DNA from: Methanobacteriota archaeon
GTDB lineage: Archaea; Thermoplasmatota; Thermoplasmata; SG8-5
Length of the DNA: 46,715 bases
NCBI GenBank assembly: GCA_030670795.1
Contig: DAOVAY010000001.1
Span: forward strand, 1-46,715
Direction of reading: 5' to 3'
Both the position numbers and the translations under genes were made by a program. Of the stretch, positions 713-45,795 are shown piece after piece. Every line of letters begins with the position of its first letter. The stretch's first letter is position 1. Under the pieces are notes generated by a model, which saw only the letters and a list, made by a program, of their open reading frames with translations, had not been told where the DNA came from and made no database searches.

Positions 713-1897
713 TCAGAGGAATAGCTCACGAAGGTGCTCTGGCATATTACTAAACAGATCTAAATCCCCATCCCAATCGCGTAATTCATCTTTGTAATTT
801 GTTTCGATATTAGTAATCGCATCCTGCATTCTGACATGGAGTCTTTCGGTACCCTTTCCTTCAAGCACGACAGCCAGAAAAATATACTTTCCATGCTCTA
901 TATGAATCTCAAGCTCACCATATTGAAGCCGCTTGAGTGTTTCTGTTTTATCGCTCTCTGTGCGGAAAGAATCTTTGATGAAAATCTGTACTGCAGAGAG
1001 CATTCCACTAAGGATTGTTTTGTCAATCACACCTTTGTCCTTCCCAACATGAGATATCAAAAGACCCGATTCGTAAATCATAAATACCTGACGAACATCG
1101 TAAAGTCTTTCTGGTTCCATAATCTTTCTTCTTTTGGTGAAATAGACAACAGTGGAAAACCCTATAGCCAGGTAGAAATATGCCATCACGAACATGCTTC
1201 CTGGTATGTTTTCGAGCGTTGAAATGTCGTATGCGGTGATGACCGCATTTATCAGGTCTCCTACTGTGAACAGCAATATGCCCACAGTCAGATAAGCCCA
1301 GTAAAAGGCCAGCTTGCCCTTGCGGTAAACATGAAGGAGTAAGAACAACACCAACAGCAGGACCATGTCGAGGTAAGGGTATGCGATGGCAATGAACTTC
1401 AAATACATGGAAGGAAGCACTAGTGAGTTACCGACGGCATTTCCTATCGGTATCAGAAGGGCGAGGGAAATACTGAACATAAAAAGTGTGATAAGTATGA
1501 GTAGCCTGACATTTGCATATTCAGCATAAGAAAAAAGTGTTTTCCAGCATGTGTATATGAGGGGCATGTAGCAGACGAGCCCAAGGATAAGCGAGAGGTA
1601 GAATAATGAGAGCACGAGACCTGTGTAAGACATTATTACCCAGAGAATTTCTGCTAAGAGTAGTAAGCCAGCAAAGATAAAAAAAGAGTTTGCAATAGAC
1701 CTGAAAGCCTCATCTTTATTATTTTTGCGTGCGATTATAACGAGTGCACAAATTGCACTCAATCCAACTATTGTAAGACCATTGATGTACATTCCTGCTT
1801 CATGCGTTGGAAGTAAAATATGTCCGAAGGAAATCAGTATTATAATGGGGGTTAGCATGAAAATCAAACGTGAAAACTGCTTTGTCTTGAACTCCAT
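713..1897 (-). CDS. Polytopic membrane protein (about 7-8 predicted TM helices) with a ~125 aa C-terminal soluble domain ending in a WDGDLD motif
   Basis: 394 aa ORF. The N-terminal 260 aa are strongly hydrophobic. The C-terminal domain (nt ~716-1105) is clearly homologous to an insert in the AAA-TPR protein at 17187-20141 (GLLI..D..I.S.ML.AV..F..DS...Y.E..I..E...DWDGDLD). Confidence 0.6.
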   Translation of the reverse strand: MEFKTKQFSRLIFMLTPIIILISFGHILLPTHEAGMYINGLTIVGLSAICALVIIARKNNKDEAFRSIANSFFIFAGLLLLAEILWVIMSYTGLVLSLFYLSLILGLVCYMPLIYTCWKTLFSYAEYANVRLLILITLFMFSISLALLIPIGNAVGNSLVLPSMYLKFIAIAYPYLDMVLLLVLFLLLHVYRKGKLAFYWAYLTVGILLFTVGDLINAVITAYDISTLENIPGSMFVMAYFYLAIGFSTVVYFTKRRKIMEPERLYDVRQVFMIYESGLLISHVGKDKGVIDKTILSGMLSAVQIFIKDSFRTESDKTETLKRLQYGELEIHIEHGKYIFLAVVLEGKGTERLHVRMQDAITNIETNYKDELRDWDGDLDLFSNMPEHLRELFL

Positions 1898-4357: not shown

Positions 4358-4423
4358 TGGTTTCACCTTTAATCGTTGGTGTATACAACCCCCCATATAT
4401 TTAGTTTTTATTTTTACAGTTGA

Positions 4424-4680
4424 TGGTCGAGAACGCCCAAGCTCTTTAGGCTTGGGATGGATCGACCAGTATCTTGGTAAAGAAGGGAATCCGCCGTATG
4501 CTCATCGATAAGTAGTCACATAAACACGAAGCCAAGATACTGGCTTCGGGAATTTGAGCATATGGCTGTTTAAATGTGAACTTCCAGGCCAGGTTCACAA
4601 CGCCAAGTCGTTTCGCAAAACACGTAGTGGTTTGCGTTAAGACGAGCTGTGGCTCGTCTGTTTATGGCCTGGTAGTTTAC
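4424..4680 (+). ncRNA. Candidate structured RNA / repeat element, copy 1 (longest)
   Basis: One of three homologous intergenic copies. Helices: H1 4424-4430/4462-4468, H2 4436-4442/4450-4456, H3 4493-4503/4556-4566, H4 4527-4534/4541-4548, H5 4576-4590/4666-4680, H6 4641-4647/4652-4658. G.U pairs are only possible on the + strand transcript. Confidence 0.55.
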
Positions 4681-4756
4681 AGAGAACAAAGGAAAAAGTT
4701 ATAATACAGTTTCATTATATCGGTTTTGTAGCTACATTGTAGTTGGGAGGCCTTTG

Positions 4757-4897
4757 ATGGAAGACACACCTTCTAAATTTGAGGTTTACGGTCAGGAGAT
4801 GATCGAGAAGCACGTGAAAAAGTCTGGCAACAGCGGCAGGATATACCTTCCACCTGATTGGATAGGCAAGAAGGTCAAGATAATAAGGGTGGAGTGA
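4757..4897 (+). CDS. 46-aa AbrB/SpoVT-like miniprotein resembling the archaeal DUF2080 ('transposase-associated') family; not in the supplied ORF track
   Basis: My translation: MEDTPSKFEVYGQEMIEKHVKKSGNSGRIYLPPDWIGKKVKIIRVE*. GGGAGG lies 7 nt upstream of the ATG. The stop is 7 nt before the next gene. The G-x-S-x-R-I-Y-L-P..WIGKKV pattern is typical of swapped-hairpin AbrB-like proteins. Confidence 0.55.
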   Translation: MEDTPSKFEVYGQEMIEKHVKKSGNSGRIYLPPDWIGKKVKIIRVE

Positions 4898-6520: not shown

Positions 6521-7864
6521 ATGGTAGAAGCAGAAGTGAAATACCCGACAGAATCATTAAAGTGCTGGAACAAGGCAAAAGATATCAGAATGAAGTATTA
6601 CCAAGATTACGCAGAGGCCCATGACAAAGGCGGGCTCAGGTGGGCTGGCGGGGCCTGGACCTTCGATGCGATCCCAGCAGGCCTTGGGGATGATGTATAT
6701 CCGATAACCAGTGAGCCATACGGCGCATCAATCGCGTTCGACAAGGAACTCTCATTGGAATGCATGGAGGCAACCGAAGTAAAGGGCTACCCCAGAGACT
6801 TGTGTTCCTACATGCGCAACTACTGGGGCTCGATACTTACGGACAAGTTCGCATTCGGATACAAGGACGGAGAATTCATGCCCAGATTTGCAGGTGCCGA
6901 ACCCCTGCCGTTCCCGAAACCCGATTTCCTCTGGCAGGACCACATATGCTGCTCGCATGCCAAGTGGTACCAGGTTGTGTCAGAACTCGAAGGTGGGATA
7001 CCAACATACACAGTGGACAACGCTGTAGGGCCAGCTCACGAGATCAATGATAGAAAAATTAAGTTCGTTGTTGAGCAGCTAAAGGAAGGCATCACATTTC
7101 TGGAGAAGACCACTGGCCGAGACTTTGATGATGAACTTATGTACAAGGCCATAAGGAATCACTTTGTTTCAACATCGAAGTGGGCCGAGATCTGCGAGCT
7201 GAACAAAGCCATTCCAGCACCACTGGATGAAAAATCCATCTACTCGCTCTATGTGTTCGGCACTCTTCAAAAGGCAGGGCAACAGGTGGCTGATTTTTAT
7301 GAAAAAGACCTTCTTCCGGAAGTACAGGACAGGGTCAGAAGAGGCATCGCCGCAGTCCCGACCGAGCGTTTCAGGGTGATGTCGGACACACAACCGCCGT
7401 GGAGTTTCCTCAAGGTGTTCAGATATCTCGAGAAGTTCGGTTGCGTTTCCGTCGGTTCTCTATACACCTTCGGGCTCATCGGCCAATGGGAAATAAAAGA
7501 GGACGGCACCTGGGGTCCGATGCCTATTCCGGACGTGGAGTTCTCCGGCAGAGACCAGGCTCTCTACGAGTATGTGAAATACGAATTGAACAAGCCGGAA
7601 TGGCAGCATTTCTATTCCTGTCATATCAAGAGCGACATGATGGTCAGGATAGCCAGGGAGTGGAAGCTCGATGGCGCGATGCTCCATTACAACAGAGGTT
7701 GCGAGGGCTTGAGCATCGGAATTGCGGAAAACAGACTGGCACTTCTCGATGCAGGCTTTCCGGTAATGGCATTCGAAGGAAATAATGCGGATGAGAGGGA
7801 ATTCGACGAGGCCAGGACAAAGGCCAAGATAGACGCGTTCATGGAAACACTTGGAGCAAAATAA
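6521..7864 (+). CDS. Benzoyl-CoA reductase / 2-hydroxyacyl-CoA dehydratase family subunit, BcrB/BzdO-like
   Basis: Sequence ...[16 protein letters not shown]...SEPYGASIA...[12 protein letters not shown], typical of BcrB/BadE-type subunits. Start set at ATG 6521 after GAGGAGGTG. The ORF track start is 6491. Confidence 0.85.
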
Positions 7865-7871
7865 TGGAGGA

Positions 7872-8657
7872 ATGAAGATGATCACAATGGGAATAGACAT
7901 GGGAGCGAAGACCATAAAAGTCGTGATACTGAAAGACAACGAAATCATTGGAAAATCCATCGTGGTGGCAGGCTTTGAGGTGGAAAAAATGGCCAACGAG
8001 GCGATCGACAAGGCCCTGAGCGAAGCCGGCATTACGAGGGACGACATATCCAAAACAGTCTCGACTGGTGCTGGTGAGAAACAGGCCCCCTTCTACGACG
8101 AGACTAAATCCGTGGTGGGCTGTGATTCGCTCGGAGCGGCATTTCTTCATCCGCCTGTCAGATGCGTCATAGATGTCGGCGCGGAAGAGGGCAGGGGAAT
8201 GAGATGTGACGAGACCGGTAAGATACTGGACTTTGAGGTCAATGAGAAATGCGCGGCCGGTGCAGGAGCTTTCACAGAGGCAATGTCCCGAGCATTGGAA
8301 GTGCCACTTGAAGAGCTGGGCGCCCTGTCTTTGAAGGCGACGGAGGACGTCCCGATGAACGCTCAGTGCACTGTATTTGCGGAATCTGAGGTCGTGACGA
8401 TGGTACACAACAACGTTCCGAAGGAAAACATGGCAAAAGCAGTTCACGACGCAATGGCCAGCAGGATAACTTCGATGGTCAGGAAGATAGGCTTCAAGAA
8501 AGATGTGGTCCTCATAGGCGGTGTGGCAAAGAACGTCGGTTTTGTGAGCTCTCTCAATGCTGACCTTGAACTTGAAGTCGTTGTACCAGAAGAGCCGGAG
8601 TTCGTCGGAGCCCTGGGCGCGGCATTGGCCGCGGCCGGCTGGAAAGGAGGTGCATGA
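7872..8657 (+). CDS. BcrA/BcrD/HgdC-family (BadF/BadG) ATPase subunit 1
   Basis: Acetate/sugar-kinase fold ATPase motifs (GIDMGAKTIKVV, DVGAEEG, EKCAAGAGAF with cluster-ligating Cys). ATG 7872 or 7878 follows GGAGG. Confidence 0.85.
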   Translation: MKMITMGIDMGAKTIKVVILKDNEIIGKSIVVAGFEVEKMANEAIDKALSEAGITRDDISKTVSTGAGEKQAPFYDETKSVVGCDSLGAAFLHPPVRCVIDVGAEEGRGMRCDETGKILDFEVNEKCAAGAGAFTEAMSRALEVPLEELGALSLKATEDVPMNAQCTVFAESEVVTMVHNNVPKENMAKAVHDAMASRITSMVRKIGFKKDVVLIGGVAKNVGFVSSLNADLELEVVVPEEPEFVGALGAALAAAGWKGGA

Positions 8658-8658
8658 C

Positions 8659-9525
8659 ATGACGGAAAAACAAGAGTTATGGAGATGGACAGAATCGAGA
8701 TGGACCAATCCAGATATAGATTGGAAGGGAAAATTGATCACCTCGGGTGTGGACGTGGGCTCGGTAAGTTCGCAGGCGGTCATATTGGCAGATGGCGAGC
8801 TCTATGCCTATTCCAACATGAGAACCGGTTCGAACAGCCCGGATTCGGCAATGAATGCAATAAACTGGGCAATGGAAGACACAGGTCTTACGCTGGACGA
8901 TATAGCTTATACTGTCGGCACGGGATACGGGCGGGTCAATGTGCCCTTCAGCCAACGCGCCATCACCGAGATCGCGTGCCATGCCAGAGGGGGCAACCAC
9001 ATGTACGGCCCAACTGTAAGGACAATCCTGGACATGGGCGGTCAGGACTGCAAGGCCATACACTGCGATGAAAAGGGCAAGGTGACTAACTTCCTCATGA
9101 ACGACAAATGCGCAGCTGGCACTGGTCGGGGCATGGAGGTTTTTGCAGACCTCCTTGGCGTGTCGATCAATGATATAGGGGAACTTTCTCTTGATATAGA
9201 CGAGGAGCCTCCACCGGTAAGCAGCACGTGTGTGGTCTATGCAAAGACAGAAGCCACCGGCCTTCTCAGGGAAGGTTGGCCGACGAACAAGGTACTGGCT
9301 GCTTACTGCTCGGCGATGGCCCACAGGATAATGACCCTCCTGGAGAGAATTGGCGTCGAGAAGGACTTTGCAATAACCGGCGGGATAGCCAAGAACAAGG
9401 GCGTTATTACCAGGCTGCAGAAAGAGGTAGGGACAACGATATTGGAGACTGAATACGATACTCAAATCGCCGGCGCCCTGGGTGCGGCCCTGTTTGCAAA
9501 AGCACTGAAAGAGAAGGGGAAGTAG
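8659..9525 (+). CDS. BcrA/BcrD/HgdC-family ATPase subunit 2 (distinct paralog)
   Basis: Motifs GVDVGSVSSQAVIL, DMGGQDCK, NDKCAAGTGRG. ATG 8659 is 1 nt after the previous stop and follows GGAAAGGAGG. The ORF track start 8557 overlaps the upstream gene. Confidence 0.85.
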   Translation: MTEKQELWRWTESRWTNPDIDWKGKLITSGVDVGSVSSQAVILADGELYAYSNMRTGSNSPDSAMNAINWAMEDTGLTLDDIAYTVGTGYGRVNVPFSQRAITEIACHARGGNHMYGPTVRTILDMGGQDCKAIHCDEKGKVTNFLMNDKCAAGTGRGMEVFADLLGVSINDIGELSLDIDEEPPPVSSTCVVYAKTEATGLLREGWPTNKVLAAYCSAMAHRIMTLLERIGVEKDFAITGGIAKNKGVITRLQKEVGTTILETEYDTQIAGALGAALFAKALKEKGK

Positions 9526-23657: not shown

Positions 23658-23791
23658 CTTATCTCCTTCAATTATTTGAGTACAGTGGAATAAATCATAA
23701 GTTGCATCTTATTGTTCATATCCACAAATATAGCAACCAGGAATTATCATGGAACCTATTAATCATTTTGGTGTTTTGATATTATTGTCAA

Positions 23792-24015
23792 AGGTCAAGA
23801 ACACTCAGGTCTTTAGGCCTGAGATGAATTGACCTGAATATCATTAAAAGGAGGAGACCGCCGTATGCGCATCAATACCTATTGAAGGAACTCGAAGTCA
23901 TCAACTTCGAGAAATCGCGCATATGGCCGCTTAAAAGTGAACTTCCAGGCCAGGATAGAAACGCCAGGTTGTTAAGACGAGCTGTGGCTCGTCTGTTTAT
24001 GGCCAGGTAGTTTAC
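23792..24015 (+). ncRNA. Candidate structured RNA / repeat element, copy 2
   Basis: Helices: H1 23792-23798/23829-23835, H2 23804-23811/23816-23823, H3 23860-23870/23917-23927, H4 23891-23898/23904-23911, H5 23937-23951/24001-24015, H6 23976-23982/23987-23993. Confidence 0.55.
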
Positions 24016-24103
24016 GCCACCCATACTAATGATTAAATATTGACAGGCACTTTACCTCAGATAGTGGGCCATACCCAGTTATAATCCCTCTAAAGGTGAA
24101 GTT

Positions 24104-34718: not shown

Positions 34719-34723
34719 ATTTA

Positions 34724-34931
34724 CTGTCGTCCCATAAACACCCTGTCCTTCAGGGCAGGGATAATGTAAGACGACAGCCAGAGGTGAGGCCGCCGTATGC
34801 TCATCGATAATCATGCATCGAAACTCAAAGCCAATAACTTCTGGTTTTGAGTAATCGAGCATATGGCTGCTTGAATGTAAACTTTCAGGCCAGGATAACA
34901 ACGCACGATCATTTATGGCCTAGTAGTTTAC
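34724..34931 (+). ncRNA. Candidate structured RNA / repeat element, copy 3 (shortest; lacks H6)
   Basis: Helices: H1 34724-34731/34770-34777, H2 34741-34748/34753-34760, H3 34792-34802/34857-34867, H4 34823-34833/34842-34852, H5 34877-34891/34917-34931 (with a 3-nt internal loop). Confidence 0.5.
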
Positions 34932-35057: not shown

Positions 35058-38000
35058 ATGACGCCTACAAAGAAACGTTTTACCGAGGATTTCATCTCCA
35101 AGTGGAGTAAAGCATCCAGTCCGGAGGAGGTTAACCGGACAGAAGAACTTTTGAAGCGGCAGGAGGCTCTTTTAAGAAAGGACCCGGACAATGCCAGGCT
35201 CTGGATGGCCTGCGGTGAAACCCTCCAGATACTCGGAAAGCACAGCGAGGCCCTGATAGCCTTCTTGAAGGCCAGGGAGTTGGAGCCGACCCTGCCCGGT
35301 CTGAAATTGTCTATTTCAAATGCCCAAGCGCGCGCCGGAAAGCCTGTCGAGGCGGTATCTGGCTATCTTTTGAGTTTACAGGAAGTTTGTGAGTCCATAG
35401 ACAGCCCCCACCTTCATAAACTCAAGGTCAGGGAAAGCGTCGACGACATACTGAAACAGATGTCCCGCGAGCTGTCTTCCGATCCCGAGCGTCAGAGAAA
35501 GGCACAGGCAGTCAACATCCTGACGGGAGTGCCGGGAATCGGCCACCTGAAGGCCAAGGTGCTTTTCGATGCCGGTTTCAGGTCAATCAAGGATTTGAAC
35601 GAGGCCAGTGTCGACGAGCTGGCCGAGGTCGAGGGCATAGGGCTCAAGACAGCCCAGAAGATTAAAATCGTGGTGACATTCCAGGAGAAGGCTGAGGGCA
35701 GACTGGAAGACATGCCGGGCGTCATAGGCCTGGACACCGACGAGAAAGAGGAAATGGAATGCCCCTTGTGTAAGACGATTTTGAGCGCGAGCTCCGCTGT
35801 CTGTTACGAGTGCGGCATGAAGTTCAAAGAGGCCGGCGATACAGAGGACGAGGACGACCTTCATGGACTGCTGGCCGAGTTCGACAGCATTTTGGCAGCA
35901 AAACCAGACGCCATCGCCACCTGGAATCAGAAAGGCGGCGTACTGACCAAGCTGGAAAGATATGAAGAAGCCATCAACGCATTCAACGAAGTTACTGTTA
36001 TCGACCCCAATTATCCAGGCGTCTGGAACATGAAGGCCGAGGTATTCACGAAGATGGGGGAACATCAGAAGGCCGCTTCTTGCTTCAAGCGGGCAATGGA
36101 GTTGGGCGTCGCCACGGCGGTATCGGAGGCGGCGGGTGAAGAGGTCGAGGAACTTCTTCATGAACTGGACACATTCGAGGACGATTCGGAAATAGACAAA
36201 GAAGTCTGGTTGTCCGAGCAGAGGGCGCTCCAGAAAGAGCTTCTGGACCTGGCAGAGGTCGACACGGACGATATCGACCTAGAACTGCCGTCACTGGACA
36301 AAGAAGAGGCGGAACTGCTCGACATCATCATGAAGGACGAGAAAACAGCGGCCGAGTCAGTTGAGGTTGAGATACCCGACATTGACGAAGAGGACATCAA
36401 GAAAATCGAGGAGATCACGAGGGCGCTGGATGAGGAGCGCGTCCCGCTGGCGCGCGTTGAGGAGGAGGTTACCCCAGAGGAGGTTGCGGCCATCGAAGCG
36501 GTCACGAAACCACTGGTGGGCAAGGCCCCGGAGCCAAAAGACCGGGGCATGACCAACGGGCTCGGGCGAGGCATGACTAACGGCCTCGCTAGAAAGGGGA
36601 TGATCAACGGCACCGGGCGCACGAACGGCCTGACGAATGGCGTGGGCAGAACCAATGGTATGACTAACGACCTCACTAACGGTCTGGGCAGGACAAATGG
36701 CTTGACCAATGGTGTTGGGCGTACAAATGGTCTCACCAACGGCCTGACGAATGGCCTGGGCAGGACAAATGGCTTGACCAACGGTGTTGGGCGTACAAAT
36801 GGTCTCACCAACGGCCTGACTAACGGCCTTACAAACGGAGTAACGAACGGTTTGACCAACGGCCTCAGGGCGCTCAAGTCCGGGATGACCAACGGGCTGA
36901 CGAACGGAACCGGCCTGACAAATGGTCTCGGCGGCAGACGATTCAGCAGGGAAGCCAGACGCAACAAATGGAAGTTGTACGTGATACCCTTGGTAACCAT
37001 GCTTATGCTGCTGGTTCCGATGGTTTCGACGACTGCCCCGCAACAAGAGCAGTTTCCGATCAACATAGACGGCGATTTCGCTGACTGGTCCAACGTGCAG
37101 TCGATTTCGTCGAACCCAGTGACGGGCACTTTCAACGCCAACGTTGACGTAACGAGCTGCGCGATGGAGAATAATCTGGAGAGATACCTCTCGTTCTGTG
37201 TCGATGTTGTGGGTATAATGTTCGCTGGCGAGCCGGTAACTCAAGAAGGTTATGTCGACGTCGTGCACATCCTCATAGACACCGACAACAACGACATGAC
37301 TGGCTATTCTGTTCGCGGCATCGGGGCGAACTACATGCTGAGCATAAGCGGATGGAACGGAGGAATCGTTTCTTCCTCGATTTCGGCGTATTCCGACATG
37401 ACAAACCAGGACAACTTCAACGGCTTTATATCGATGACGAACATCCGCGCGGAAATCAACGGCCAGCATCTCGAAACCCAGGTGGCGTGGTCTGCCATGG
37501 ACATTCTGGAGCCGACCGGCGTGACGGCAGTTGTTCACACCCAATCATGGAACGGGCACCACGACTTCTCTGACAGTTTCGTGACCAACGCCCTGACTAT
37601 AGCCAGCGCAACTCAAACCAGCCGGGCATCCGAGACGATGTCCGGGGCAAACCAACCGCTTCTTGATATCGGCATTACCGCGGTAAACGCGGACGTAGAT
37701 ATGGCGAACATTAGAGTTTCGTTGGTGGGCACATTCCAGCAAACCGACGTCGACGCCCTGCGCCTGATTGATTCCGCAGGGGCGGCGGTCTCTCAAATCA
37801 CCAATCCATCGCAAAACACAACATTGAGCATGGTAGGCACCTCAATTCCGAGAGGCCAGACATCCACATTCACTCTTCAAGCTGACATTTCCTCAAACGC
37901 GATTTTGGGCAGAACCATCGGAGCAAGGATCGAAAAGGCAGGCGACATCTCGCTCTTGAACGGCAGCGCGAGTCTGGTTACCATCGAAACCGCCAACGAC

Positions 38001-39263
38001 CTCGGTTACATCAGCGTCGTTCCCGGCAGCCCGATCGTCGACGGGGGATTTTCAGACTGGACATCAGAAAGCAGTGTCGACGGAGCAGGCGAATCAGGAT
38101 TGAGCCAGAGCGCCGACATAAGCAGGTACGGCGCCCAGAACGATGGCTCGAGTTTATTCTTCTATCTCAGTACGGCGGACGACATAATGGCCGGTTATTC
38201 TGTACCCTCCAGATCATCCCGTGCACCATCAGGTCAGACAACAACTACCACCACAGCTGCGGACAGTGACGGCGACGGCCTCTTGGATGACGAAGAGCCG
38301 GAAGAGTTCAGGTTTGACTTCGACAACGACGGCATTCCTGATACGGAGGATAACGACAAGGACAACGACGGAATACTGGACTACGGCTCGGGGGGAAACG
38401 ACACCGAGCTCTACAACCCGGTCACGAAAGCCACGAGGTTCATAGGGACTTACAGGCGTCCCGCAATTACTGGCTATGACACAGCCCGTATTTTCATAAA
38501 CTCGGATAACAACACCGCAACCGGGTATTCAGGAAACGGAATAGGCGCGGATTATATGCTCGAATTCCTCGGCAAGGGTGGGGTGGTAAAAGAGGCCACA
38601 TCTTACGTATTCTCGGGTGCTTACCAGGGATCTTGGAACTGGTCGGAATCCGGAGTGCTGGCCTATCAGAAGGATACGATGCAATTGGAGGCTTCGCTGA
38701 ACGTAGCGACAACATCTGACATCGAAGTGTGGTTCGAGACAACTGCTTGGAATGGGGATGAGGACACATCAGATGATGTTGTACATGCGGTACTAGTAAC
38801 ATTTGCCGTCAGGTCTGGCGGTGGGGGTGAAGGTGTGTTGGGACCGACCTTCCCGGTCATGGTCTATGGGGTGGTGAAAAACAGCACAGGCCCCGCACCG
38901 GACGGAACATGGGTCACCATAGTTGTCAAAGACAGTGGTGGCACGCCACAGGCCTGGTACAACACCACGACTTCCACGATTGACGGCACCCAAGGCAGGT
39001 TTGTCAGAACAGGAATATATGTTCAGGCGGGCTGGACAATAGAGCTCAATGTGTCATATACTTGGTCTGGCTCGACATACACTGGCACCAACGGCACGAC
39101 TGTGGTTTCTAATAAGTACCTCTATAATATGGATGTCAATACCACATCTGCAGTTATTCCAGAGTTCAGATTCATCATTTTACCAATACTGGCATTTATT
39201 CCGTTAATTTCAATGAGTAGACGAAGGAGAAATAAGAAAAGAGCGGGCGGTGGTCGAAAATGA
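35058..39263 (+). CDS. 1401-aa two-anchor envelope protein: cytoplasmic TPR + (HhH)2 + Zn-ribbon + TPR + acidic region + TNGL repeats, TM helix, ~750-aa extracellular region with Asp-rich Ca-binding-type repeats, and a PEF-CTERM-like tail
   Basis: No signal peptide. GVPGIGHLKAKVLFDAGF...VEGIGLKTAQKI (nt ~35514-35666); CPLCKT...CYECG (35760-35816). TM helix WKLYVIPLVTMLMLLVPMV is preceded by RRFSREARRNK. DSDGDGLLDDEEP...DNDGIPDTEDNDKDNDGILD lies at ~38260-38400. Confidence 0.8.
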   Translation: MTPTKKRFTEDFISKWSKASSPEEVNRTEELLKRQEALLRKDPDNARLWMACGETLQILGKHSEALIAFLKARELEPTLPGLKLSISNAQARAGKPVEAVSGYLLSLQEVCESIDSPHLHKLKVRESVDDILKQMSRELSSDPERQRKAQAVNILTGVPGIGHLKAKVLFDAGFRSIKDLNEASVDELAEVEGIGLKTAQKIKIVVTFQEKAEGRLEDMPGVIGLDTDEKEEMECPLCKTILSASSAVCYECGMKFKEAGDTEDEDDLHGLLAEFDSILAAKPDAIATWNQKGGVLTKLERYEEAINAFNEVTVIDPNYPGVWNMKAEVFTKMGEHQKAASCFKRAMELGVATAVSEAAGEEVEELLHELDTFEDDSEIDKEVWLSEQRALQKELLDLAEVDTDDIDLELPSLDKEEAELLDIIMKDEKTAAESVEVEIPDIDEEDIKKIEEITRALDEERVPLARVEEEVTPEEVAAIEAVTKPLVGKAPEPKDRGMTNGLGRGMTNGLARKGMINGTGRTNGLTNGVGRTNGMTNDLTNGLGRTNGLTNGVGRTNGLTNGLTNGLGRTNGLTNGVGRTNGLTNGLTNGLTNGVTNGLTNGLRALKSGMTNGLTNGTGLTNGLGGRRFSREARRNKWKLYVIPLVTMLMLLVPMVSTTAPQQEQFPINIDGDFADWSNVQSISSNPVTGTFNANVDVTSCAMENNLERYLSFCVDVVGIMFAGEPVTQEGYVDVVHILIDTDNNDMTGYSVRGIGANYMLSISGWNGGIVSSSISAYSDMTNQDNFNGFISMTNIRAEINGQHLETQVAWSAMDILEPTGVTAVVHTQSWNGHHDFSDSFVTNALTIASATQTSRASETMSGANQPLLDIGITAVNADVDMANIRVSLVGTFQQTDVDALRLIDSAGAAVSQITNPSQNTTLSMVGTSIPRGQTSTFTLQADISSNAILGRTIGARIEKAGDISLLNGSASLVTIETANDLGYISVVPGSPIVDGGFSDWTSESSVDGAGESGLSQSADISRYGAQNDGSSLFFYLSTADDIMAGYSVPSRSSRAPSGQTTTTTTAADSDGDGLLDDEEPEEFRFDFDNDGIPDTEDNDKDNDGILDYGSGGNDTELYNPVTKATRFIGTYRRPAITGYDTARIFINSDNNTATGYSGNGIGADYMLEFLGKGGVVKEATSYVFSGAYQGSWNWSESGVLAYQKDTMQLEASLNVATTSDIEVWFETTAWNGDEDTSDDVVHAVLVTFAVRSGGGGEGVLGPTFPVMVYGVVKNSTGPAPDGTWVTIVVKDSGGTPQAWYNTTTSTIDGTQGRFVRTGIYVQAGWTIELNVSYTWSGSTYTGTNGTTVVSNKYLYNMDVNTTSAVIPEFRFIILPILAFIPLISMSRRRRNKKRAGGGRK
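36540..36930 (+). repeat. In-frame tandem repeats encoding about 30 copies of a T/M-N-G-L/V-type tetra/pentapeptide, including a near-perfect 66-bp direct duplication
   Basis: ctgggcaggacaaatggcttgaccaa[t/c]ggtgttgggcgtacaaatggtctcaccaacggcctgac[g/t]aa[t/c]ggc occurs twice back to back (~36683-36814). Confidence 0.85.
39159..39263 (+). other. PEF-CTERM-like sorting signal (Pro-Glu-Phe, hydrophobic helix, Arg/Lys cluster)
   Basis: ...VIPEFRFIILPILAFIPLISMSRRRRNKKRAGGGRK*. The tripartite architecture resembles archaeosortase (ArtC-type) substrates as I recall them. Confidence 0.5.
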
Positions 39264-39303
39264 TATATACTACTCGTAACAATATAAATGAGGAGGAAAG
39301 AGG

Positions 39304-42300
39304 ATGAAGCAAGATAGAGTAATGTGGGCATCTAAAATCATATGCACAGTCGTTGTTCTGATGATGGTAACAGCAACGATTTTACCGCTTACCGTGGGAG
39401 ACACGCTCTACGAGATTACATCTGGCGAGGGCGATTCTGGAGCAGGCACAACTGCGCAGTTCGGCTGGAACGTATCAAAGGCCGGAGACGTAGACGGCGA
39501 TGGCACACCAGATATCATCGTTGGAGCACCTAATGCAGATTATGGTGGTAACACAGATTGCGGTGCGGCCTTCATTTTCTTCGGCTATGAAGGTATTGAA
39601 GATAGCGACCTCAATGCCAGCAGCGCAAACGTTTCTATTTATGGGGCCAACGCCGGCGACCACTTCGGTTGGGACGTGAGCGATGCGGGGGATGTCAATG
39701 GTAATTATGCCGACATCATAATTGGCGCACCCGATGCTCTGACCTACGGTACGGACAGGAATGGGAGTGCTTATATTTTCTATGGTAAAGGCCTGGACTG
39801 GGAGGCAGTGACCGACGATGGGGTCTGGGCTTTGTCTTCGACTGCGGCTAACGTCACCATCGATGGCGAGGCAGACGGCGACAGGTTCGGGGCGAGCGTG
39901 AGCTGTGCTGGCAATTATGATAATTTAGTTAATGATGATGTGATAGTGGGGGCGCCGAATGCTGATTCAGGAAAAGGCAGAGCCTACATATTCTATGATG
40001 GCTCCATGTCCACAAGTATCAGTGCAGCAAATGCAGATATAATCATGAATGGAAAACATGAAAATGGCAAATTCGGCACATCTGTTTCATCTGCTGGTGA
40101 CACAGATGGAGTTGGCGGCACAGAGGTTGTTGTTGGTGAGCCAGGTAGTGAAAGGGCGTATGTATATTATCCCCCCTCAGACCAGACTGCGAATGCTGAT
40201 GACCCGGCTAGCGGAACCGTGACGCCAAGCACGAATGGATATGTAAAGACACAAGCAAGCGATGATGATTATGAGATTTTGGAGGAGGAAGCAGGAGGCG
40301 GATCTTCCGTAATCTGGGATGATGATTTTGAGACCGATAAAGGATGGACTGGTTATGGAGGTGGTGGAGAATGGGAGCGAGCGGCTCCGAGTGGTCTTGG
40401 GGGTGAGCACGGGAATTCAGATCCAAGTGCAGACCATACAAGTGGTTCAGGGACGCTCTGTCTCGGGAATGACATCACAGGTGGAGGTACGTATCTAGGC
40501 GACTATGAGAATACCGGAGGAACCACCTACTGGATTACTTCGCCTTCGATAGATTTTACAGGGAAGACTAATGTTCACATGCGCTTCTGGCGCTACCTCA
40601 ACGTCGAGAACAGCGCCTATGACAATGCATACATTGAAACTCAGAACGGTGTAACAGGATGGACCCGCCTTTGGGACAACACAGACTTCCTCGTCACCGA
40701 TAATGTCTGGATTCAGGTAATATATGATGTGTCAACGATGGCTGATAACCAGAACGCTTTCCAGGTGCGTTTCGGTATCGATGGGGACAGTACCTGGTTC
40801 TTTTCGGGCTGGAACATAGACGATTTCGAACTACTAACTGGAACCTTGGCTACGTATGATTATTCCTCTGGTTACAACACGGACAAGTGGTCTTATGATA
40901 AGTCAAACGAGGCTGTCCGACCACCTGGCTCTGGTCCTGCCGTTGCCGGGGAAGCAGCATTCACAAGTGCCAACATTGCTGGAACCGATAATATCCGATA
41001 CTCAACCACTATCACTGCAGGAACCTATAGCTTTCAACGCTTCGAGATCAACATTGCCGAGAATCCTGCAAACATTGATGGACTCTACCTGGAGTATGAG
41101 GGCGGTGCTTCAGGAACAGCTACTGGGACCAACGGCTACATGTGGAACTTCACTTCTGGAGCATGGGAGGTCTGGGCAAACACCCCAATGTATGTTGGTG
41201 GTGATACCGCGTCAGACGTTTCTTATTTGAATGGATTCTCAAACTATATCAGCGGTGGGAAGCTTTACTTTCTGGCCGAGTGTGGTGCATCTGATGTAGG
41301 GATAACACATCGTACCGATCATGTCCAGGTTCAAATATTCACCGAGAGTGCAATTTCAACTAGCAAACTAGAGCACAAATGGACAATTCCTGTAACCACA
41401 GGCGGCACATTCTACCTAGAAGCGAATCGAACAGACAAAGGCGAGGGCGACACATTAGATTTCTATTACTCGCTCACAGGCACTGGCACAGTGGGAGACA
41501 CTGGTGCTGGATGGGTCTCGATGATGGGCCAGATCACGATTCCAACAACTGGTGACCCAGACAGCTACCAAACCTATTCAGACTCAACCCTGGACACCCA
41601 CACAGGCCCTTTGTATATTGGAGTTGTTGACGCAGACAGAACAGGTGACAACACTTTGAAAGATGTGCTATGTGTTGATCATATGTTTGTTCGAGGGATA
41701 TCTTTCAAAGAACTTATTGGAGAAAGAGTAACCCAGAGCACAGATTATACGGCGACAGCAGATACTGCTGTAACTGGCACAGTTACAAACACCTACGCCA
41801 AAACCCAGGCAACAGATGATGATTATGAATCAATACAGGAAGTATCTGTTGCAGCCACATATGATTATGATTATACAACAGACGAAGTGTTTACCCAGTC
41901 TGAGTCTCACACAAACGACCACACAGCCACGCAAGCGCTTGGGGGGAACACCGAGGATATTGTTGAGCTGAGTATGCCTGGTGGTGGAAACGAATATCTA
42001 TACGTTGACGGTTGGGGCAGCGAAAGAACAGCCTGGACAGAAGCTGGCAATGCGCCTTACCTGAATGCACAAGATGAGCCTACACATATCATTAGCACGA
42101 CAAGTGATGGTGCACAGAGCGGAGATTACACATTCCAGAATAGTGCTATTACAGGGACCTTTTCGAGTTCGCAGGTCGAATTCTATGCTAACAATGATGA
42201 TGGTGCGGCTAATGATGAATTCCTCGTATACATTCACGATGGCACTTCGTGGAATTACATTGGCACGGTTCAACCAACAGGTACTATATATGCATGGTTT

Positions 42301-45300
42301 GCACTAGATACTTCAGGCATATTAGATACTGAAACCAAAATTGATGCCGCTAAACTATATGTAGAGTTCAACAGGGTTGGACAAACAGATGATGTTCGAA
42401 TCGATTGCGCTCGCATTTATTGGGAGACCACAGGCGTAGCTCATGAGTCACTCGAGCACAAATGGCAGTTCACTAACACGCCATTGTCAGCCTCGCAATA
42501 TGAATTCCATGCCTTTGTGGGCTGGGACGGGGCTGGGGCTGGGGACGACACCTTCGAGTATTACTACTCAGAGGCAAACCCCCCAACCACCAGTGTCGGT
42601 GACCCCTCAGAATGGACATTGATGTTCACTGACAGCACTGAAGCAGTAAACGAGCAGACCTTCGACCTTGACAATGATGGATACACTGGCGGAACCTTCT
42701 ATGTAGGGGTTATTGACACTGCCAGTTCAGGTGATGGTAAGGACACTTTGATTGTCGATTATTTGTATGTGGAAACATTGATTACACCTGCAACATCAGA
42801 GTTAGAACATAAATGGACCTTTGCCGGTGTCAGTGCTGGAACTGACACGACCTTCTACCTTGAAGCTTACCGCACCAATCTGGATAGTGAAGATTTCGAG
42901 TTCTATTACTCTACCACTGGTGCGGGAAGTGTCAGCACCTGGACACCGATGCCTAGTCTTGATCTTACAAAGACCACTGATGACGATGTCTACCAAGAAT
43001 TTTCTGATGGGACATTGGACGCGTTCACTGGCACTCTCTATGTTGGGGTGATAGATGCGACAAGTGGAGATTCTAACCTGGATACGGTTTACATAGACCA
43101 CATGTACTTCAGAGCATCAGGGGCGATGCTTGATTCTGATTTTGGTTTCTCTGTTGGCTATGTTGATAATTTGAACGATGATGGTAGTAATACACCAGAT
43201 GTGTTGATTGGTGCACCCTCAGCTAACAACGGTTACGCATATGGCTGGTTCGACGGCGATTTTGAAACTATGGCATCCAGAACAGACACGAGCCAAGCAG
43301 ATTTTACTGTTTCGGGAAGTAGCCTGGCATCGAGTAATCCAAATAATAACATTTTTGCAACATCTGGTGGGGACTTGAATTTGAGTGCTAATATAATCTT
43401 TGAAGATGATTTTGAGGATGATACTGTAGGAGGCAACCCTGACGATCCTCCCTGGACAACAACTGAAGATGCGGATGCGGTGGTTTCGATTGTTAATACG
43501 ATTTATTATCCTCCATCAGATCCAAGTGGCCAGTGTGTTGAGCTTGCAGATTCTGGTACGGGACCTGTTGGTGATTATTGTAGAATCACAGCATCATTTA
43601 CTGCAATTGCTGAAGGGTGTGTAGAATATTATCTTCGAGTAAGCAATACCGAGGAAACCGATATATTTGTAAAGACAGGTGCTACAAACGTAATGATTAT
43701 GTTTTTTTCAGGTAATAACATATACTGGCATGACGGGAGTAACCATGACATAGGCGATTATGTCATTGATACATGGTATCACGTAAGACTGATATTCGAT
43801 TGTGACACAAATAAATATGATATATATATCGACGATATGGTAACGCCAGCAAAAACTGGTGCTGATTTTGATACAGGTGCAACCGATGTCAATACAATTG
43901 AATTTGTATCGCCTACCGGCACTACCGTAACAGCCTATATAGATAAGATAAAGGTCTATGATTTTGATACCCCTGGCAACTACACCTCATCAACCACCAC
44001 GGCCCCCTATTATTTAACTGCCGTTAAACCATATTGGAATCTCACAACACCCACGGGTACCACAGCCTGGATAAACATCTCAAGGGATGGTGGTATAACT
44101 TGGAATCAATCTGCCATCTCCAATGGCTGTTGGTACACCTTCCCAAGTGAGGCCATAGGCAAGGAACTGTGTTATAAGATTGAGATGTCAACCACCCATG
44201 TTGGCTTCACCCCTGTTTTGGAGGATATCACACTGTATTACGAATACTGCAATCCTCCGGATGTAACATTCACCGGCTCATCCTCCGGCGACAAATTCGG
44301 CTTTTCGGTAGCTTCAGCTGGCGATATCGACGGCGACAGCATAGGTGACATAATCGTTGGAGCGCCGTATGATGATGACGGTGGAGCAGATGCCGGCGGT
44401 ATATTCGTTTATTGTGGCGGCGCGTATCTTTCAGGAACTGTCTCGGCAGCGAACGCTAACTTCACCTACTTCGGTGAGAACGCTGGCGATATGTTAGGTT
44501 GGTCTGTGAGCACAGCCGGGGATATCAACGAGCACGGATACGATGATGTGATTGCTGGTGCGCCATACTATGACTCCTCCAAGGGGATGGCGTATGCGTT
44601 GTCGATAGCTCTGCCCATGAAAATCACATCTTTTACAATAGCTGAGAACAGTTCTGATGCACTGGACGTGGACCTGAGCTGGAGTTCTGTCAAGGGCGCT
44701 ACAAAATACAAAATATTCAGATCCGACAGACCTTGGAAGTTCAACTGGGCCTCCCCTATTGCCACAATCGATGCTCCGGCGACATCATGGACAGATACAA
44801 CTGCCGCGAGGAACACCACTAATTCGCAAAACATGACCGCCTATTACTATGCGATAAGGGCCGAGAATCCAATAGGTGAGTTGGGCTCATTCAAAATGTT
44901 CGCCATATACCGCATGGACCTTGTGAAAGGATGGAACCTTGTATCGTGGTTCTCGAATGCTACTCAGGACATAGAATCAGAAGCCTTCAAGAACTTGGAG
45001 GATGACGACGGCACGAATCCCGACACTTACGAATACGACAAGGTCGAACGCTGGAATCCGACCACCCAGCAGTGGGAATCATACACTACAGATGGTGATC
45101 TCGGTCCGTTCTCAGATATGGCTCCGGGCTATGCGTATGCTGTGCAGTGCAACCACACAGGCGGCGATGGCGTAATCACATGGACGTACACGGAGGACTT
45201 CGGCTCTCCGACGTTCAGCTCTGCAGACGATTCGGCATTGGGTGCTCCGACAAACTTCCAGCTTGCACGAAATGCCGGCAACCCCGACCATGTGGACTTG

Positions 45301-45795
45301 AGCTGGACCGCGGTTGGCGGAGCCGCCCGTTACAACATTTACCGCTCCACAACGAAATGGGGCTTTGACTTCAACTCTCCAATATATTTCACGGCAAACG
45401 GAGCAGAAGTTACCTGGACTGACACGACATCGACACAGGAGAACGGTGCATACAACCACTCGGTTTACTACTACATTGTCCGGGCTGTTGATGCAAGCGG
45501 CGATATAGAGAAGAACACCAATGCTGTCGGCATGCACAGGATGGACTTTATGACTGGTATCAACTATATCAGCTGGGGCGTGATGAAAATCGAAGACATA
45601 GACGCGGCAGCGTTGGCCAGTCTAACCTGGGGCGGCGATTATTTTGCAGTATCTCGCTGGAACGAGACAGCACAGGAATTCAATAATACTGACTGGGCCA
45701 CAGTAAATGACTTCACCGACTTTGAGCCGGGATACGGGTACGCAGTGTATGCGATACAGGCATGCACCTGGACCTACGTTGAGTACACGACATGA
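39304..45795 (+). CDS. 2163-aa secreted surface protein: signal peptide, two FG-GAP (integrin-alpha-like) blocks, jelly-roll/LamG-like regions, a triplicated ~110-aa 'LEHKW' domain, and two C-terminal FN3-like plus partner-domain modules
   Basis: N-terminal hydrophobic segment IICTVVVLMMVTATILPL. FG-GAP repeats FGWNVSKAGDVDGDGTPDIIVGAPNAD (x4 at ~39460-40150; x3 at ~43140-44590). LEHKW units start at 41368, 42451 and 42802. LSWSSVKGATKYKIFRS and LSWTAVGGAARYNIYRS are FN3-like. Confidence 0.85.
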   Translation: MKQDRVMWASKIICTVVVLMMVTATILPLTVGDTLYEITSGEGDSGAGTTAQFGWNVSKAGDVDGDGTPDIIVGAPNADYGGNTDCGAAFIFFGYEGIEDSDLNASSANVSIYGANAGDHFGWDVSDAGDVNGNYADIIIGAPDALTYGTDRNGSAYIFYGKGLDWEAVTDDGVWALSSTAANVTIDGEADGDRFGASVSCAGNYDNLVNDDVIVGAPNADSGKGRAYIFYDGSMSTSISAANADIIMNGKHENGKFGTSVSSAGDTDGVGGTEVVVGEPGSERAYVYYPPSDQTANADDPASGTVTPSTNGYVKTQASDDDYEILEEEAGGGSSVIWDDDFETDKGWTGYGGGGEWERAAPSGLGGEHGNSDPSADHTSGSGTLCLGNDITGGGTYLGDYENTGGTTYWITSPSIDFTGKTNVHMRFWRYLNVENSAYDNAYIETQNGVTGWTRLWDNTDFLVTDNVWIQVIYDVSTMADNQNAFQVRFGIDGDSTWFFSGWNIDDFELLTGTLATYDYSSGYNTDKWSYDKSNEAVRPPGSGPAVAGEAAFTSANIAGTDNIRYSTTITAGTYSFQRFEINIAENPANIDGLYLEYEGGASGTATGTNGYMWNFTSGAWEVWANTPMYVGGDTASDVSYLNGFSNYISGGKLYFLAECGASDVGITHRTDHVQVQIFTESAISTSKLEHKWTIPVTTGGTFYLEANRTDKGEGDTLDFYYSLTGTGTVGDTGAGWVSMMGQITIPTTGDPDSYQTYSDSTLDTHTGPLYIGVVDADRTGDNTLKDVLCVDHMFVRGISFKELIGERVTQSTDYTATADTAVTGTVTNTYAKTQATDDDYESIQEVSVAATYDYDYTTDEVFTQSESHTNDHTATQALGGNTEDIVELSMPGGGNEYLYVDGWGSERTAWTEAGNAPYLNAQDEPTHIISTTSDGAQSGDYTFQNSAITGTFSSSQVEFYANNDDGAANDEFLVYIHDGTSWNYIGTVQPTGTIYAWFALDTSGILDTETKIDAAKLYVEFNRVGQTDDVRIDCARIYWETTGVAHESLEHKWQFTNTPLSASQYEFHAFVGWDGAGAGDDTFEYYYSEANPPTTSVGDPSEWTLMFTDSTEAVNEQTFDLDNDGYTGGTFYVGVIDTASSGDGKDTLIVDYLYVETLITPATSELEHKWTFAGVSAGTDTTFYLEAYRTNLDSEDFEFYYSTTGAGSVSTWTPMPSLDLTKTTDDDVYQEFSDGTLDAFTGTLYVGVIDATSGDSNLDTVYIDHMYFRASGAMLDSDFGFSVGYVDNLNDDGSNTPDVLIGAPSANNGYAYGWFDGDFETMASRTDTSQADFTVSGSSLASSNPNNNIFATSGGDLNLSANIIFEDDFEDDTVGGNPDDPPWTTTEDADAVVSIVNTIYYPPSDPSGQCVELADSGTGPVGDYCRITASFTAIAEGCVEYYLRVSNTEETDIFVKTGATNVMIMFFSGNNIYWHDGSNHDIGDYVIDTWYHVRLIFDCDTNKYDIYIDDMVTPAKTGADFDTGATDVNTIEFVSPTGTTVTAYIDKIKVYDFDTPGNYTSSTTTAPYYLTAVKPYWNLTTPTGTTAWINISRDGGITWNQSAISNGCWYTFPSEAIGKELCYKIEMSTTHVGFTPVLEDITLYYEYCNPPDVTFTGSSSGDKFGFSVASAGDIDGDSIGDIIVGAPYDDDGGADAGGIFVYCGGAYLSGTVSAANANFTYFGENAGDMLGWSVSTAGDINEHGYDDVIAGAPYYDSSKGMAYALSIALPMKITSFTIAENSSDALDVDLSWSSVKGATKYKIFRSDRPWKFNWASPIATIDAPATSWTDTTAARNTTNSQNMTAYYYAIRAENPIGELGSFKMFAIYRMDLVKGWNLVSWFSNATQDIESEAFKNLEDDDGTNPDTYEYDKVERWNPTTQQWESYTTDGDLGPFSDMAPGYAYAVQCNHTGGDGVITWTYTEDFGSPTFSSADDSALGAPTNFQLARNAGNPDHVDLSWTAVGGAARYNIYRSTTKWGFDFNSPIYFTANGAEVTWTDTTSTQENGAYNHSVYYYIVRAVDASGDIEKNTNAVGMHRMDFMTGINYISWGVMKIEDIDAAALASLTWGGDYFAVSRWNETAQEFNNTDWATVNDFTDFEPGYGYAVYAIQACTWTYVEYTT

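Follow-up and report, generated by a model that had tools for sequence, protein, structure and literature searches.

The DNA analysed here (the window) comprises positions 1 to 46,715 of contig DAOVAY010000001.1, from assembly GCA_030670795.1 of an archaeon placed in the Thermoplasmata (lineage SG8-5). Between its genes the + strand carries three copies of a repeated element, at 4418-4680 (copy 1), 23786-24015 (copy 2), and 34725-34931 (copy 3), with pairwise identities of 79-83% (Table 1). A preliminary description of the window had found three + strand segments of shared architecture at these places, made up of helices H1 to H5, and had proposed that they form a new structured RNA family. 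The segments and their structure are real, but they behave as a dispersed, insertion-polymorphic repeat of the IS200/IS605 type in which only the H3-H4-H5 part is a candidate RNA. Judged from sequence, we consider it highly probable that they are non-autonomous, protein-less elements similar to the PATEs (palindrome-associated transposable elements) of haloarchaea, and that they represent a new family in Thermoplasmata.

Copies, helices and covariation

When the three copies in the window were folded together with RNAalifold, 67 base pairs were obtained, 14 of them with compensatory changes, and H1, H2, H3, and H5 were recovered as first described. The fold of copy 1 was far more stable than those of shuffled sequences (z = -6.7). 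In addition, exactly 3 occurrences of TTTATGGCCNRGTAGTTTAC were counted in the window, compared with 0 expected from shuffles, and CCGCCGTATGCNCATC has 3 exact matches, compared with at most about one in shuffles. Some details needed revision. H4 had been described as completely different in each copy, but the copies carry a related CTCGAAGCC/GGCTTCGAG stem that differs by a few compensated changes. The 15-bp H5 stem stands, with mismatches in copy 2 (A.A) and copy 3 (U.G plus C.A). The conserved sequence starts at 4418, 23786, and 34725, directly after TTAC or TTAT, which moves the start 6 nt earlier than it had been called.

Further copies were retrieved with sequence patterns and with R1, a covariance model of the H3-H4-H5 core comprising 141 positions and 36 pairs; retrieved loci are labelled with L-numbers (L001 etc.). 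A pattern over the 3' arm of H3 and the 5' arm of H5 returned 13 loci in two metagenome-assembled genomes (MAGs), 'Methanomassiliicoccales archaeon CSMAG_1135' and 'Thermoplasmata archaeon RS_9_71', while among 10 matches to an H5 pattern in metagenome contigs, 3 were true copies and 7 were chance matches in coding DNA. The covariance-model search of related sequences, which the preliminary description had recommended, was productive, with R1 finding 24 real copies in the window and loci, including second and third copies that lay outside model building, together with additional copies in L095/L096, which come from a different assembly. Overall, ∼25 copies are present in MAGs of Thermoplasmata/Methanomassiliicoccales related to the window and in metagenome contigs. 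On 534 kb of viral contigs used as control loci R1 gave 0 matches, none of the 61 loci from three pattern scans of viral contigs was confirmed by R1, and blastn in distant mode found no match in phage and plasmid collections.

Copies are 75-88% identical, within genomes as between genomes, and their neighbours are unrelated housekeeping genes (DNA primase, MCM, lysyl-tRNA synthetase, eIF2-gamma, a MiaB-like enzyme, homoserine dehydrogenase, pantothenate synthetase). They lie upstream of, downstream of, or convergent with these genes, and in either orientation. Two Logan contigs (L024 and L096) break off inside the repeat, and an exact-protein look-up with the neighbour of copy 2 returned only a short Logan contig that starts within the repeat. 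Recognition of the element explains a conspicuous repeat that breaks assemblies of uncultured Thermoplasmata.

Conservation of the core helices was evaluated in a set of 15 copies from at least three genomes. In these copies H3, H4, and H5 were 94.5% paired, compared with 25-41% in slid controls, and 11 pairs were changed on both sides, a number reached by 0 of 500 shuffles, bearing out the earlier claim that helices are kept by compensatory substitutions. H3 was 98.8% and H5 96.4% paired, values that are partly a matter of ascertainment because most outside copies were found by patterns that fix parts of these two helices. One pair of H3, an 11-bp stem that is otherwise nearly invariant, occurs in 4 types (G-C, U-A, C-G, A-U), and a G.U pair in H3 is present in 14 of the 15 copies. 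H4 shows double changes in 7 of its 10 pairs, and in some copies its CTCGAAGCC/GGCTTCGAG stem is replaced by CGCGGCG/CGCCGCG. The core also keeps the unpaired stretches CATCRATAA and GGAATGT. Copies outside model building supplied extra compensations, namely GGAC/GTCC and GTAAGC/GCTTAT in L011b, a U-A pair in L002b, and GCCGCATGC/GCATGCGGC in L022.

Ends, target motif and empty sites

The 3' end of the element is sharp and always reads ...GTAGTTTAC; similarity ends abruptly past ...GGCCTGGTAGTTTAC, and the 3' flanks are mutually unrelated. On the left side, TTAC or a one-base variant lies directly 5' of 12/12 copies having a left end, and the first element bases after this motif are WGT.... 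Comparing the first 30 nt with the reverse complement of the last 30 in 7 copies revealed no terminal inverted repeats, with end-to-end alignment scores of 4-7 vs shuffle means of 4.8-5.6. There is no target duplication either, as the 3' flanks are unlike the 5' flanks and no bases are doubled in the empty-site alignment of copy 2 described below. Six-frame translations contain scattered stop codons and no conserved open reading frame (ORF), and at 207-263 nt the element is too short for a transposase gene.

Each end instead carries a hairpin with a 4-nt motif at its foot, on the same strand: AACG+CTCAGG..CCTGAG in the left end (LE), and AACG+CCAGGTC..GGCCTGG in the right end (RE). The two hairpins show moderate mutual similarity, and both ends fold well under DNA parameters (-13.6 kcal/mol and z = -5.0 for the LE of copy 1). 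TTAC lies 15-19 nt 5' of the foot of H2 (18 nt between cleavage site and hairpin foot in copy 1), and the right hairpin is followed by 8 nt ending in TTAC. In copy 3 the local right-end hairpin has decayed.

This anatomy closely resembles that of IS608 from Helicobacter pylori, which inserts 3' of TTAC, 19 nt 5' of the hairpin IPL, has the guide AAAG and a right-end spacing of 10 nt, pairs guide with target as T-4:A+17 and T-3:A+16, and can be retargeted by changing the guide. As in IS608, inverted terminal repeats and target duplications are lacking, insertion is 3' of TTAC, subterminal hairpins occur at both ends on one strand with a guide directly 5' of each foot, the left spacing is long (15-19 vs 19 nt) and the right one short and inside the element (8 vs 10 nt), and guide and target covary. 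Unlike IS608, the present element has no tnpA or tnpB and measures only 207-263 nt, its right cleavage motif equals its target (TTAC and TTAC, where IS608 has TTAC and TCAA), and it possesses an extra LE-closing stem (H1) as well as a 15-bp long-range stem (H5) that overlaps the right end.

The relation between flank and guide was examined across copies. The pairs were TTAC:AACG in six copies, TTAT:AACA in copy 2, TTAT:AATA in L006, TTAG:GAAC in L007, and TCAC:GACG in L016a, which makes four compensated variants; a wobble and two mismatches were also seen. When scored by the pairing scheme of IS608, 32/36 positions were Watson-Crick pairs, compared with 26.0 ± 1.6 when flanks were shuffled (P ∼0.001). 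This natural co-variation (TTAC to TTAT, TTAG, TCAC) corresponds to the retargeting rule experimentally established for IS608, and covariation of TAM/TEM (target-adjacent and transposon-encoded motifs) with the guide was likewise taken as evidence of activity for ISGst elements (Meers et al.).

Sites lacking the element were found for two copies, in relatives at the genus or family level (66-87% protein identity) and not in strains. Four relatives (L087, L088, L090, and L091) keep the divergent HGD-D|BcrAD gene pair that surrounds copy 2, without an R1 match between the genes. The intergenic region measures 140-295 nt in these relatives and 446 nt in the window, the latter equalling 216 nt plus the 230-nt element. 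After removal of 23786-24015 from the window, the junction is framed by conserved blocks in the alignments to all four relatives (GAACYTATTA...TTTTG to its left, AATGCYAA..AT.AAATA to its right) and falls directly after ATTAT, with TTAT, TTAT, TCAT, and GTAT at the relatives' empty sites. For L087, the local alignment score across the junction was 47 vs 34.7 ± 3.8 for shuffles. The protein beside copy 2 is without a close relative, the best being 70% identical. For copy 1, the element is absent from L093 and L094, which have an SDR protein 87% identical to that in the window and the same DUF2080-GNAT-HGD-D-HGD-D neighbours; homology (78% over 120 nt) restarts at 4684, 4 nt past the 3' end of the copy.

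Other traces of mobility were also detected, including tandem or nested copies and truncated remnants. At ∼1690-1725 of L010, a mini-hairpin, GTAAACTTCCA-ATACCTTCGGGAA-TGGTAGTTTAC, is followed by a full copy directly after its TTTAC, and from its sequence it looks like a core-deleted, terminal-only remnant with a tandem insertion after its own TTTAC.

Table 1. Features of the element in the window, with one associated repeat (positions are those of the window unless a locus is named).
Feature	Position	Strand	Remarks
Copy 1, target/left cleavage motif TTAC	4414-4417	+	5' flank, within TTTAC 4413-4417
Copy 1, entire element, 263 nt	4418-4680	+	From alignments
Copy 1, core match to R1	4487-4680		126.5 bits
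Copy 1, left end (LE)	4424-4468	+	
Copy 1, H1	4424-4430/4462-4468	+	Closes LE
Copy 1, LE guide AACG	4432-4435	+	
Copy 1, H2, subterminal hairpin	4436-4442/4450-4456	+	
Copy 1, core helices	4493-4566	+	H3 4493-4503/4556-4566 enclosing H4 4527-4534/4541-4548
Copy 1, H5 long-range stem and enclosed right end	4576-4680	+	H5 arms 4576-4590/4666-4680
Copy 1, right-end guide AACG	4599-4602	+	
Copy 1, local right-end hairpin halves	4603-4609/4666-4672	+	
Copy 1, terminal TAGTTTAC	4673-4680	+	
Copy 1, two optional hairpins	4613-4637 and 4640-4659	+	
Copy 2, target motif TTAT	23782-23785	+	5' flank; matches copy 2 guide AACA (23800-23803)
Copy 2, entire element, 230 nt	23786-24015	+	R1 match 126.9 bits
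Copy 2, LE	H1 23792-23798/23829-23835; H2 23804-23811/23816-23823	+	
Copy 2, core	H3 23860-23870/23917-23927; H4 23891-23898/23904-23911; H5 23937-23951/24001-24015	+	
Copy 2, right-end guide AACG	23960-23963	+	
Copy 2, optional hairpin	23975-23994	+	
Copy 3, target motif TTAC	34721-34724	+	5' flank
Copy 3, entire element, 207 nt	34725-34931	+	R1 match 132.2 bits
Copy 3, LE	H1 34724-34731/34770-34777; guide AACA 34737-34740; H2 34741-34748/34753-34760	+	
Copy 3, core	H3 34792-34802/34857-34867; H4 34824-34833/34842-34851; H5 34877-34891/34917-34931	+	
Copy 3, right-end guide AACG	34900-34903	+	
Hairpin repeat TTGTAGTTGCG/CGCAACTACAA	L005 ∼1505-1550; L013 ∼2370-2405; L016 ∼878-912		

Probable identity of the element and possible role of its core

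Because the copies are dispersed, have precise boundaries and matching end anatomy, show covariation between flank and guide, and are absent from syntenic sites in relatives, they point to a transposon-type identity, and the most satisfactory account of H1/H2 and of the local hairpin within H5 is that they form the ends (LE and RE) of a single-stranded-DNA transposon. A Y1 (HUH) TnpA encoded elsewhere in the genome would recognise two hairpins of the top (+) strand as single-stranded DNA, the LE hairpin H2 and the local RE hairpin CCAGGTC...GGCCTGG. The 4 nt before each hairpin (AACG) would act as a DNA guide by pairing with the TTAC of the 5' flank and that of the element end, and the element would leave as a circle of single-stranded DNA and be inserted 3' of a new TTAC or TTAT, without target duplication. 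The core would be transcribed from the + strand as a scaffold of the omega-RNA or right-end-element-RNA (reRNA) type, and the 3' extension of this RNA into the flank would serve as the guide for a TnpB-like protein acting in trans. As an overall explanation, a PATE-like mobile element with such a scaffold in its core accounts best for the observations, and we consider it reasonably probable.

PATEs were named in Haloquadratum as elements without inverted terminal repeats or target duplications, with near-terminal palindromes and grouped in heterogeneous families; terminal-only remnants occur, and other small repeats often insert into them (Dyall-Smith et al.). The present elements resemble the PATEs of Haloquadratum walsbyi and the PATE-like elements of Geobacillus stearothermophilus, the latter often carrying omega-RNAs, in being protein-less with near-terminal palindromes and neither inverted terminal repeats nor target duplications. 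The distance from end to palindrome is likewise longer at the 5' than at the 3' end, and heterogeneous families (75-88% identity here), core-deleted remnants, and invasion by small repeats are common to both. They differ in lineage (Thermoplasmata/Methanomassiliicoccales) and show no similarity in the Rfam, phage, and plasmid collections, and while Haloquadratum PATEs have been linked to parent elements, no parent IS605-type element was found for this family in the window or ∼180 kb of related loci. A covariance model and precise ends now exist for an archaeal PATE family that was previously undescribed, and recognising the repeat as such guards against its mis-annotation as a new regulatory RNA.

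The assignment of the internal H3-H4-H5 module to a TnpB-type omega-RNA scaffold used in trans is tentative, an argument by analogy that we regard as plausible but short of probable. It is based on the size of the core, its end at the right boundary, its location on the top strand, the pairing of its terminal 15 nt, and the precedent of omega-RNAs in PATEs. The core ends exactly at the right boundary of the element on the top strand, and its 3'-terminal 15 nt pair upstream to form H5. By comparison, the reRNA of ISDra2 is ∼150 nt long including a 16-nt guide and ends at RE, prokaryotic omega-RNAs have the 3' end of their scaffold paired to a segment further upstream, and PATEs are reported to 'often encode omega-RNAs' that are acted on in trans by TnpB from other elements. 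Position and strand fit the omega-RNA/reRNA of ISDra2 and the archaeal sotRNAs at the 3' end of IS1341-type tnpB, since the module occupies the right end of the element, is on the top strand, and stops at the boundary; as a candidate scaffold of ∼130-140 nt, it also has a 3'-terminal segment that pairs upstream. Unlike them, it does not overlap a tnpB ORF, and its TAM would equal its TEM in most copies. The likeness noted is in layout and size; no Rfam omega-RNA model matched.

The preliminary description had recognised no known family, and this stands: at Rfam gathering thresholds there were 0 matches in the window (HEARO/IscB omega-RNA, group II intron domains, ribozymes, and riboswitches included) and nothing relevant in five loci, and at E≤10 copies 1 and 3 gave only junk matches. 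In our reading the nearest known counterpart of the core is the omega/reRNA of IS605/PATE elements, and not a new class of RNA. Should the core prove to be an omega-RNA, a compact cognate TnpB with a TTTAC-type TAM would be implied in Methanomassiliicoccales-related archaea, which would be relevant to the mining of miniature genome editors, and the identity of TAM and TEM would raise the question of how self-targeting is avoided.

Several observations weigh against the explanation as a whole. Neither tnpA nor tnpB was found beside the copies, elsewhere within the window, or across ∼180 kb of related loci, and no tnpB lies upstream of any of at least 24 copies, so that the partner transposase and nuclease are hypothetical. 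The partner search comprised Pfam on ∼45 flanking ORFs, which revealed housekeeping functions only, a crude regular expression for TnpB Zn-finger/RuvC motifs, which found none, and tblastn with an approximate IS200 TnpA query, which also found none. At the level of structure, H5 and the local right-end hairpin compete for the same 3' arm, H5 places the right cleavage site within a stem, and L095 has retained the hairpin and lost most of H5; the ascertainment affecting H3 and H5 belongs here as well. The left junction of copy 1 does not align cleanly to its relatives because of a 22-nt indel. The pairing of C-1 with G, one part of the scheme applied above to flank and guide, reportedly belongs to the IS608 rule, but the literature checked does not confirm this pair.

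Two further points concern the core in particular. In most copies the flank reads TTTAC, which is also how the element itself ends on its 3' side, and flank and end differ only in the copy 2/L006 subfamily (TTAT vs TTAC). A TnpB that took TTTAC for its TAM would consequently cleave occupied sites as well, and this speaks against nuclease homing; in characterised elements, TAM and TEM are distinct (Meers et al.). In addition, the proposed RNA strand is also the top strand of transposition, so covariation and G.U pairs could reflect folding of single-stranded DNA only. The strand argument that had been built on G.U pairs therefore holds for the + strand, but it cannot separate RNA from top-strand single-stranded DNA.

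These points lead to a different reading of the same PATE-like IS200/IS605-type element, in which H1 to H5 are all single-stranded-DNA structures and no RNA function exists. Folding of the excised top strand would bring LE and RE together and favour excision and integration by TnpA, and the compensatory changes would descend from active master copies selected for transposition only. This would fit the G.T/G.U asymmetry of the transposition top strand, the good folding of LE and RE with DNA parameters, the awkwardness for a nuclease guide of a TAM-like flank equal to the element's own end, and the failure to find TnpB in flanking ORFs and ∼180 kb of loci; moreover, near-terminal palindromes are what defines the PATEs of haloarchaea, and no RNA is required for these. 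However, IS608-type transposition requires just two subterminal hairpins, guides, and cleavage sites, whereas the most conserved part of the present element is an internal 141-position module with a near-invariant H3 and conserved unpaired stretches. H3, H4, and H5 are also retained in copies without a left end (L002b, L013a/b, L017) and without the local right-end hairpin (copy 3, L002b), two observations that ascertainment weakens. We consider a purely DNA-level role unlikely. It is quite improbable that the core is a stand-alone archaeal guide RNA that has escaped from a homing role. In most copies the would-be TAM (TTTAC) also forms the 3' end of the element, so that the guide of each copy would address the DNA just downstream, which is often a promoter or 5' region (copies 1-3, L001, L002a, L005), and a nuclease-dead or nicking TnpB-like protein (cf. 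TldR) could make the copies cis-anchored distributed regulators; alternatively, the module could serve a non-TnpB effector.

Other explanations dispense with an IS200/IS605-type element of this kind. Chromosomal genes for a new structured small RNA acting in trans or in cis, spread by ordinary duplication, equipped with their own promoters, and regulating downstream genes, would be consistent with strong covariation without an Rfam match, with the position of all three window copies upstream of co-oriented genes and between stretches of AT-rich, promoter-like DNA, and with element ends only 12-15 nt before the start codon in L001 and L005. Yet the downstream genes are functionally unrelated and about one-third are convergent (L003, L007, L010, L011b, L013a), similarity breaks off sharply on either side (at the TTAC flank and at ...GTTTAC), flank and guide covary, tandem/nested copies and truncated remnants occur, and the element is precisely absent from syntenic loci of relatives, so that we judge such genes highly improbable. 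Palindromic repeats of the REP/REPIN type, mobilised by the domesticated Y1 transposase RAYT (TnpA-REP), would explain the dispersal in intergenic DNA and the 15-nt inverted repeats around a spacer, if the H5 arms are taken as an inverted REP doublet, and RAYTs are related to IS200/IS605 TnpA (PMC8266576). In the window family LE is unlike RE, a TTAC target is defined, and conservation extends over a long internal module; no RAYT came to light, no search for one having been made in a library or across genomes. REPs are palindromes of 20-40 nt that lack a separate LE and RE, a flank target, and a guide, and this origin seems to us extremely improbable.

Several known families were likewise considered and set aside. 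A classical MITE, derived from a DDE transposon, was ruled out by the lack of terminal inverted repeats and target-site duplications, and a cis-regulatory leader or riboswitch by neighbouring genes that are unrelated and in several cases convergent with the element. One frame is open across H3-H4 in ∼10 copies, raising the possibility of a leftover tnpB C-terminus in the core, which was rejected because stops vary and the covarying base is the first codon position. The resemblance of GCCGUAU to domain V of group II introns was taken as coincidence, with no Rfam intron match and a different 3' arm. The AAC...GTT arms recall the core sites of integron attC, a reading rejected because a cassette array is absent and the core sites do not match. 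No internal or upstream archaeal promoter is conserved, and upstream TATA-like boxes lie outside the element.

Associated repeats and neighbouring genes

A second small repeat, a hairpin of the form TTGTAGTTGCG(N20-30)CGCAACTACAA, was observed within or adjoining copies of the PATE-like element, and in L016 it belongs to a ∼150-nt insertion that splits the 3' arm of H3. It is reminiscent of the SMR-A repeats, which have the PATEs of Haloquadratum as their targets. A subfamily in RS_9_71, represented by L008, L011 (120-340, - strand), and L016 (949-1195), lacks the AACG guide at the right end, and its 5' domain repeats the 5' arm and loop of H5, AAACTTCCAGGCCC...CCTTTAGGG, a 39-nt segment that is identical in L011.

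Near copy 1, a 46-aa ORF at 4757-4897, 77 nt past the element, matches Pfam DUF2080 ('putative transposon-encoded protein'). It heads the DUF2080-GNAT-HGD-D-HGD-D row, which is kept in the element-free L093 and L097, its upstream region, including TTGTAGCTACATTGTAGTTGGG, is ∼78-85% conserved, and DUF2080 is not found beside other copies. Since the ORF is kept in element-free relatives and absent near other copies, it is a resident gene and not cargo of the element.

Elsewhere in the window, ORFs of 394, 254, and 314 aa (713-1897, - strand; 1972-2736, + strand; 7839-8783, - strand) have no Pfam match at E≤0.001, and some of these may be spurious overlaps. Past copy 3, the stretch 35058-45795 contains two very large ORFs of 1401 and 2163 aa, the former with TPR, helix-hairpin-helix, and zinc-ribbon matches only.

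The intergenic DNA on both sides of copy 2 (23658-23785 and 24016-24103) shares GAACYTATTA, AATGCYAA..AT.AAATA, and CATTT with the four empty-site relatives, and these blocks are conserved although the proteins of the relatives are only ∼66% identical. They are probably a shared promoter or operator of the HGD-D|BcrAD pair, and copy 2 splits the intergenic region.

Finally, in L017 (1-520, - strand; metagenome contig FXBF010012006.1) a group II intron that begins GTGTGCC..., matched by Rfam RF02001 (114.9 bits) and RF01998 (50.1 bits), abuts the 3' end of a copy. The junction, ...GGCCTGGTAGTTTA|GTGTGCCGGGC, is one base short of the canonical ...TTTAC end, and this single case raises the possibility that the terminal stem of the element may serve as a homing site for a group II intron.

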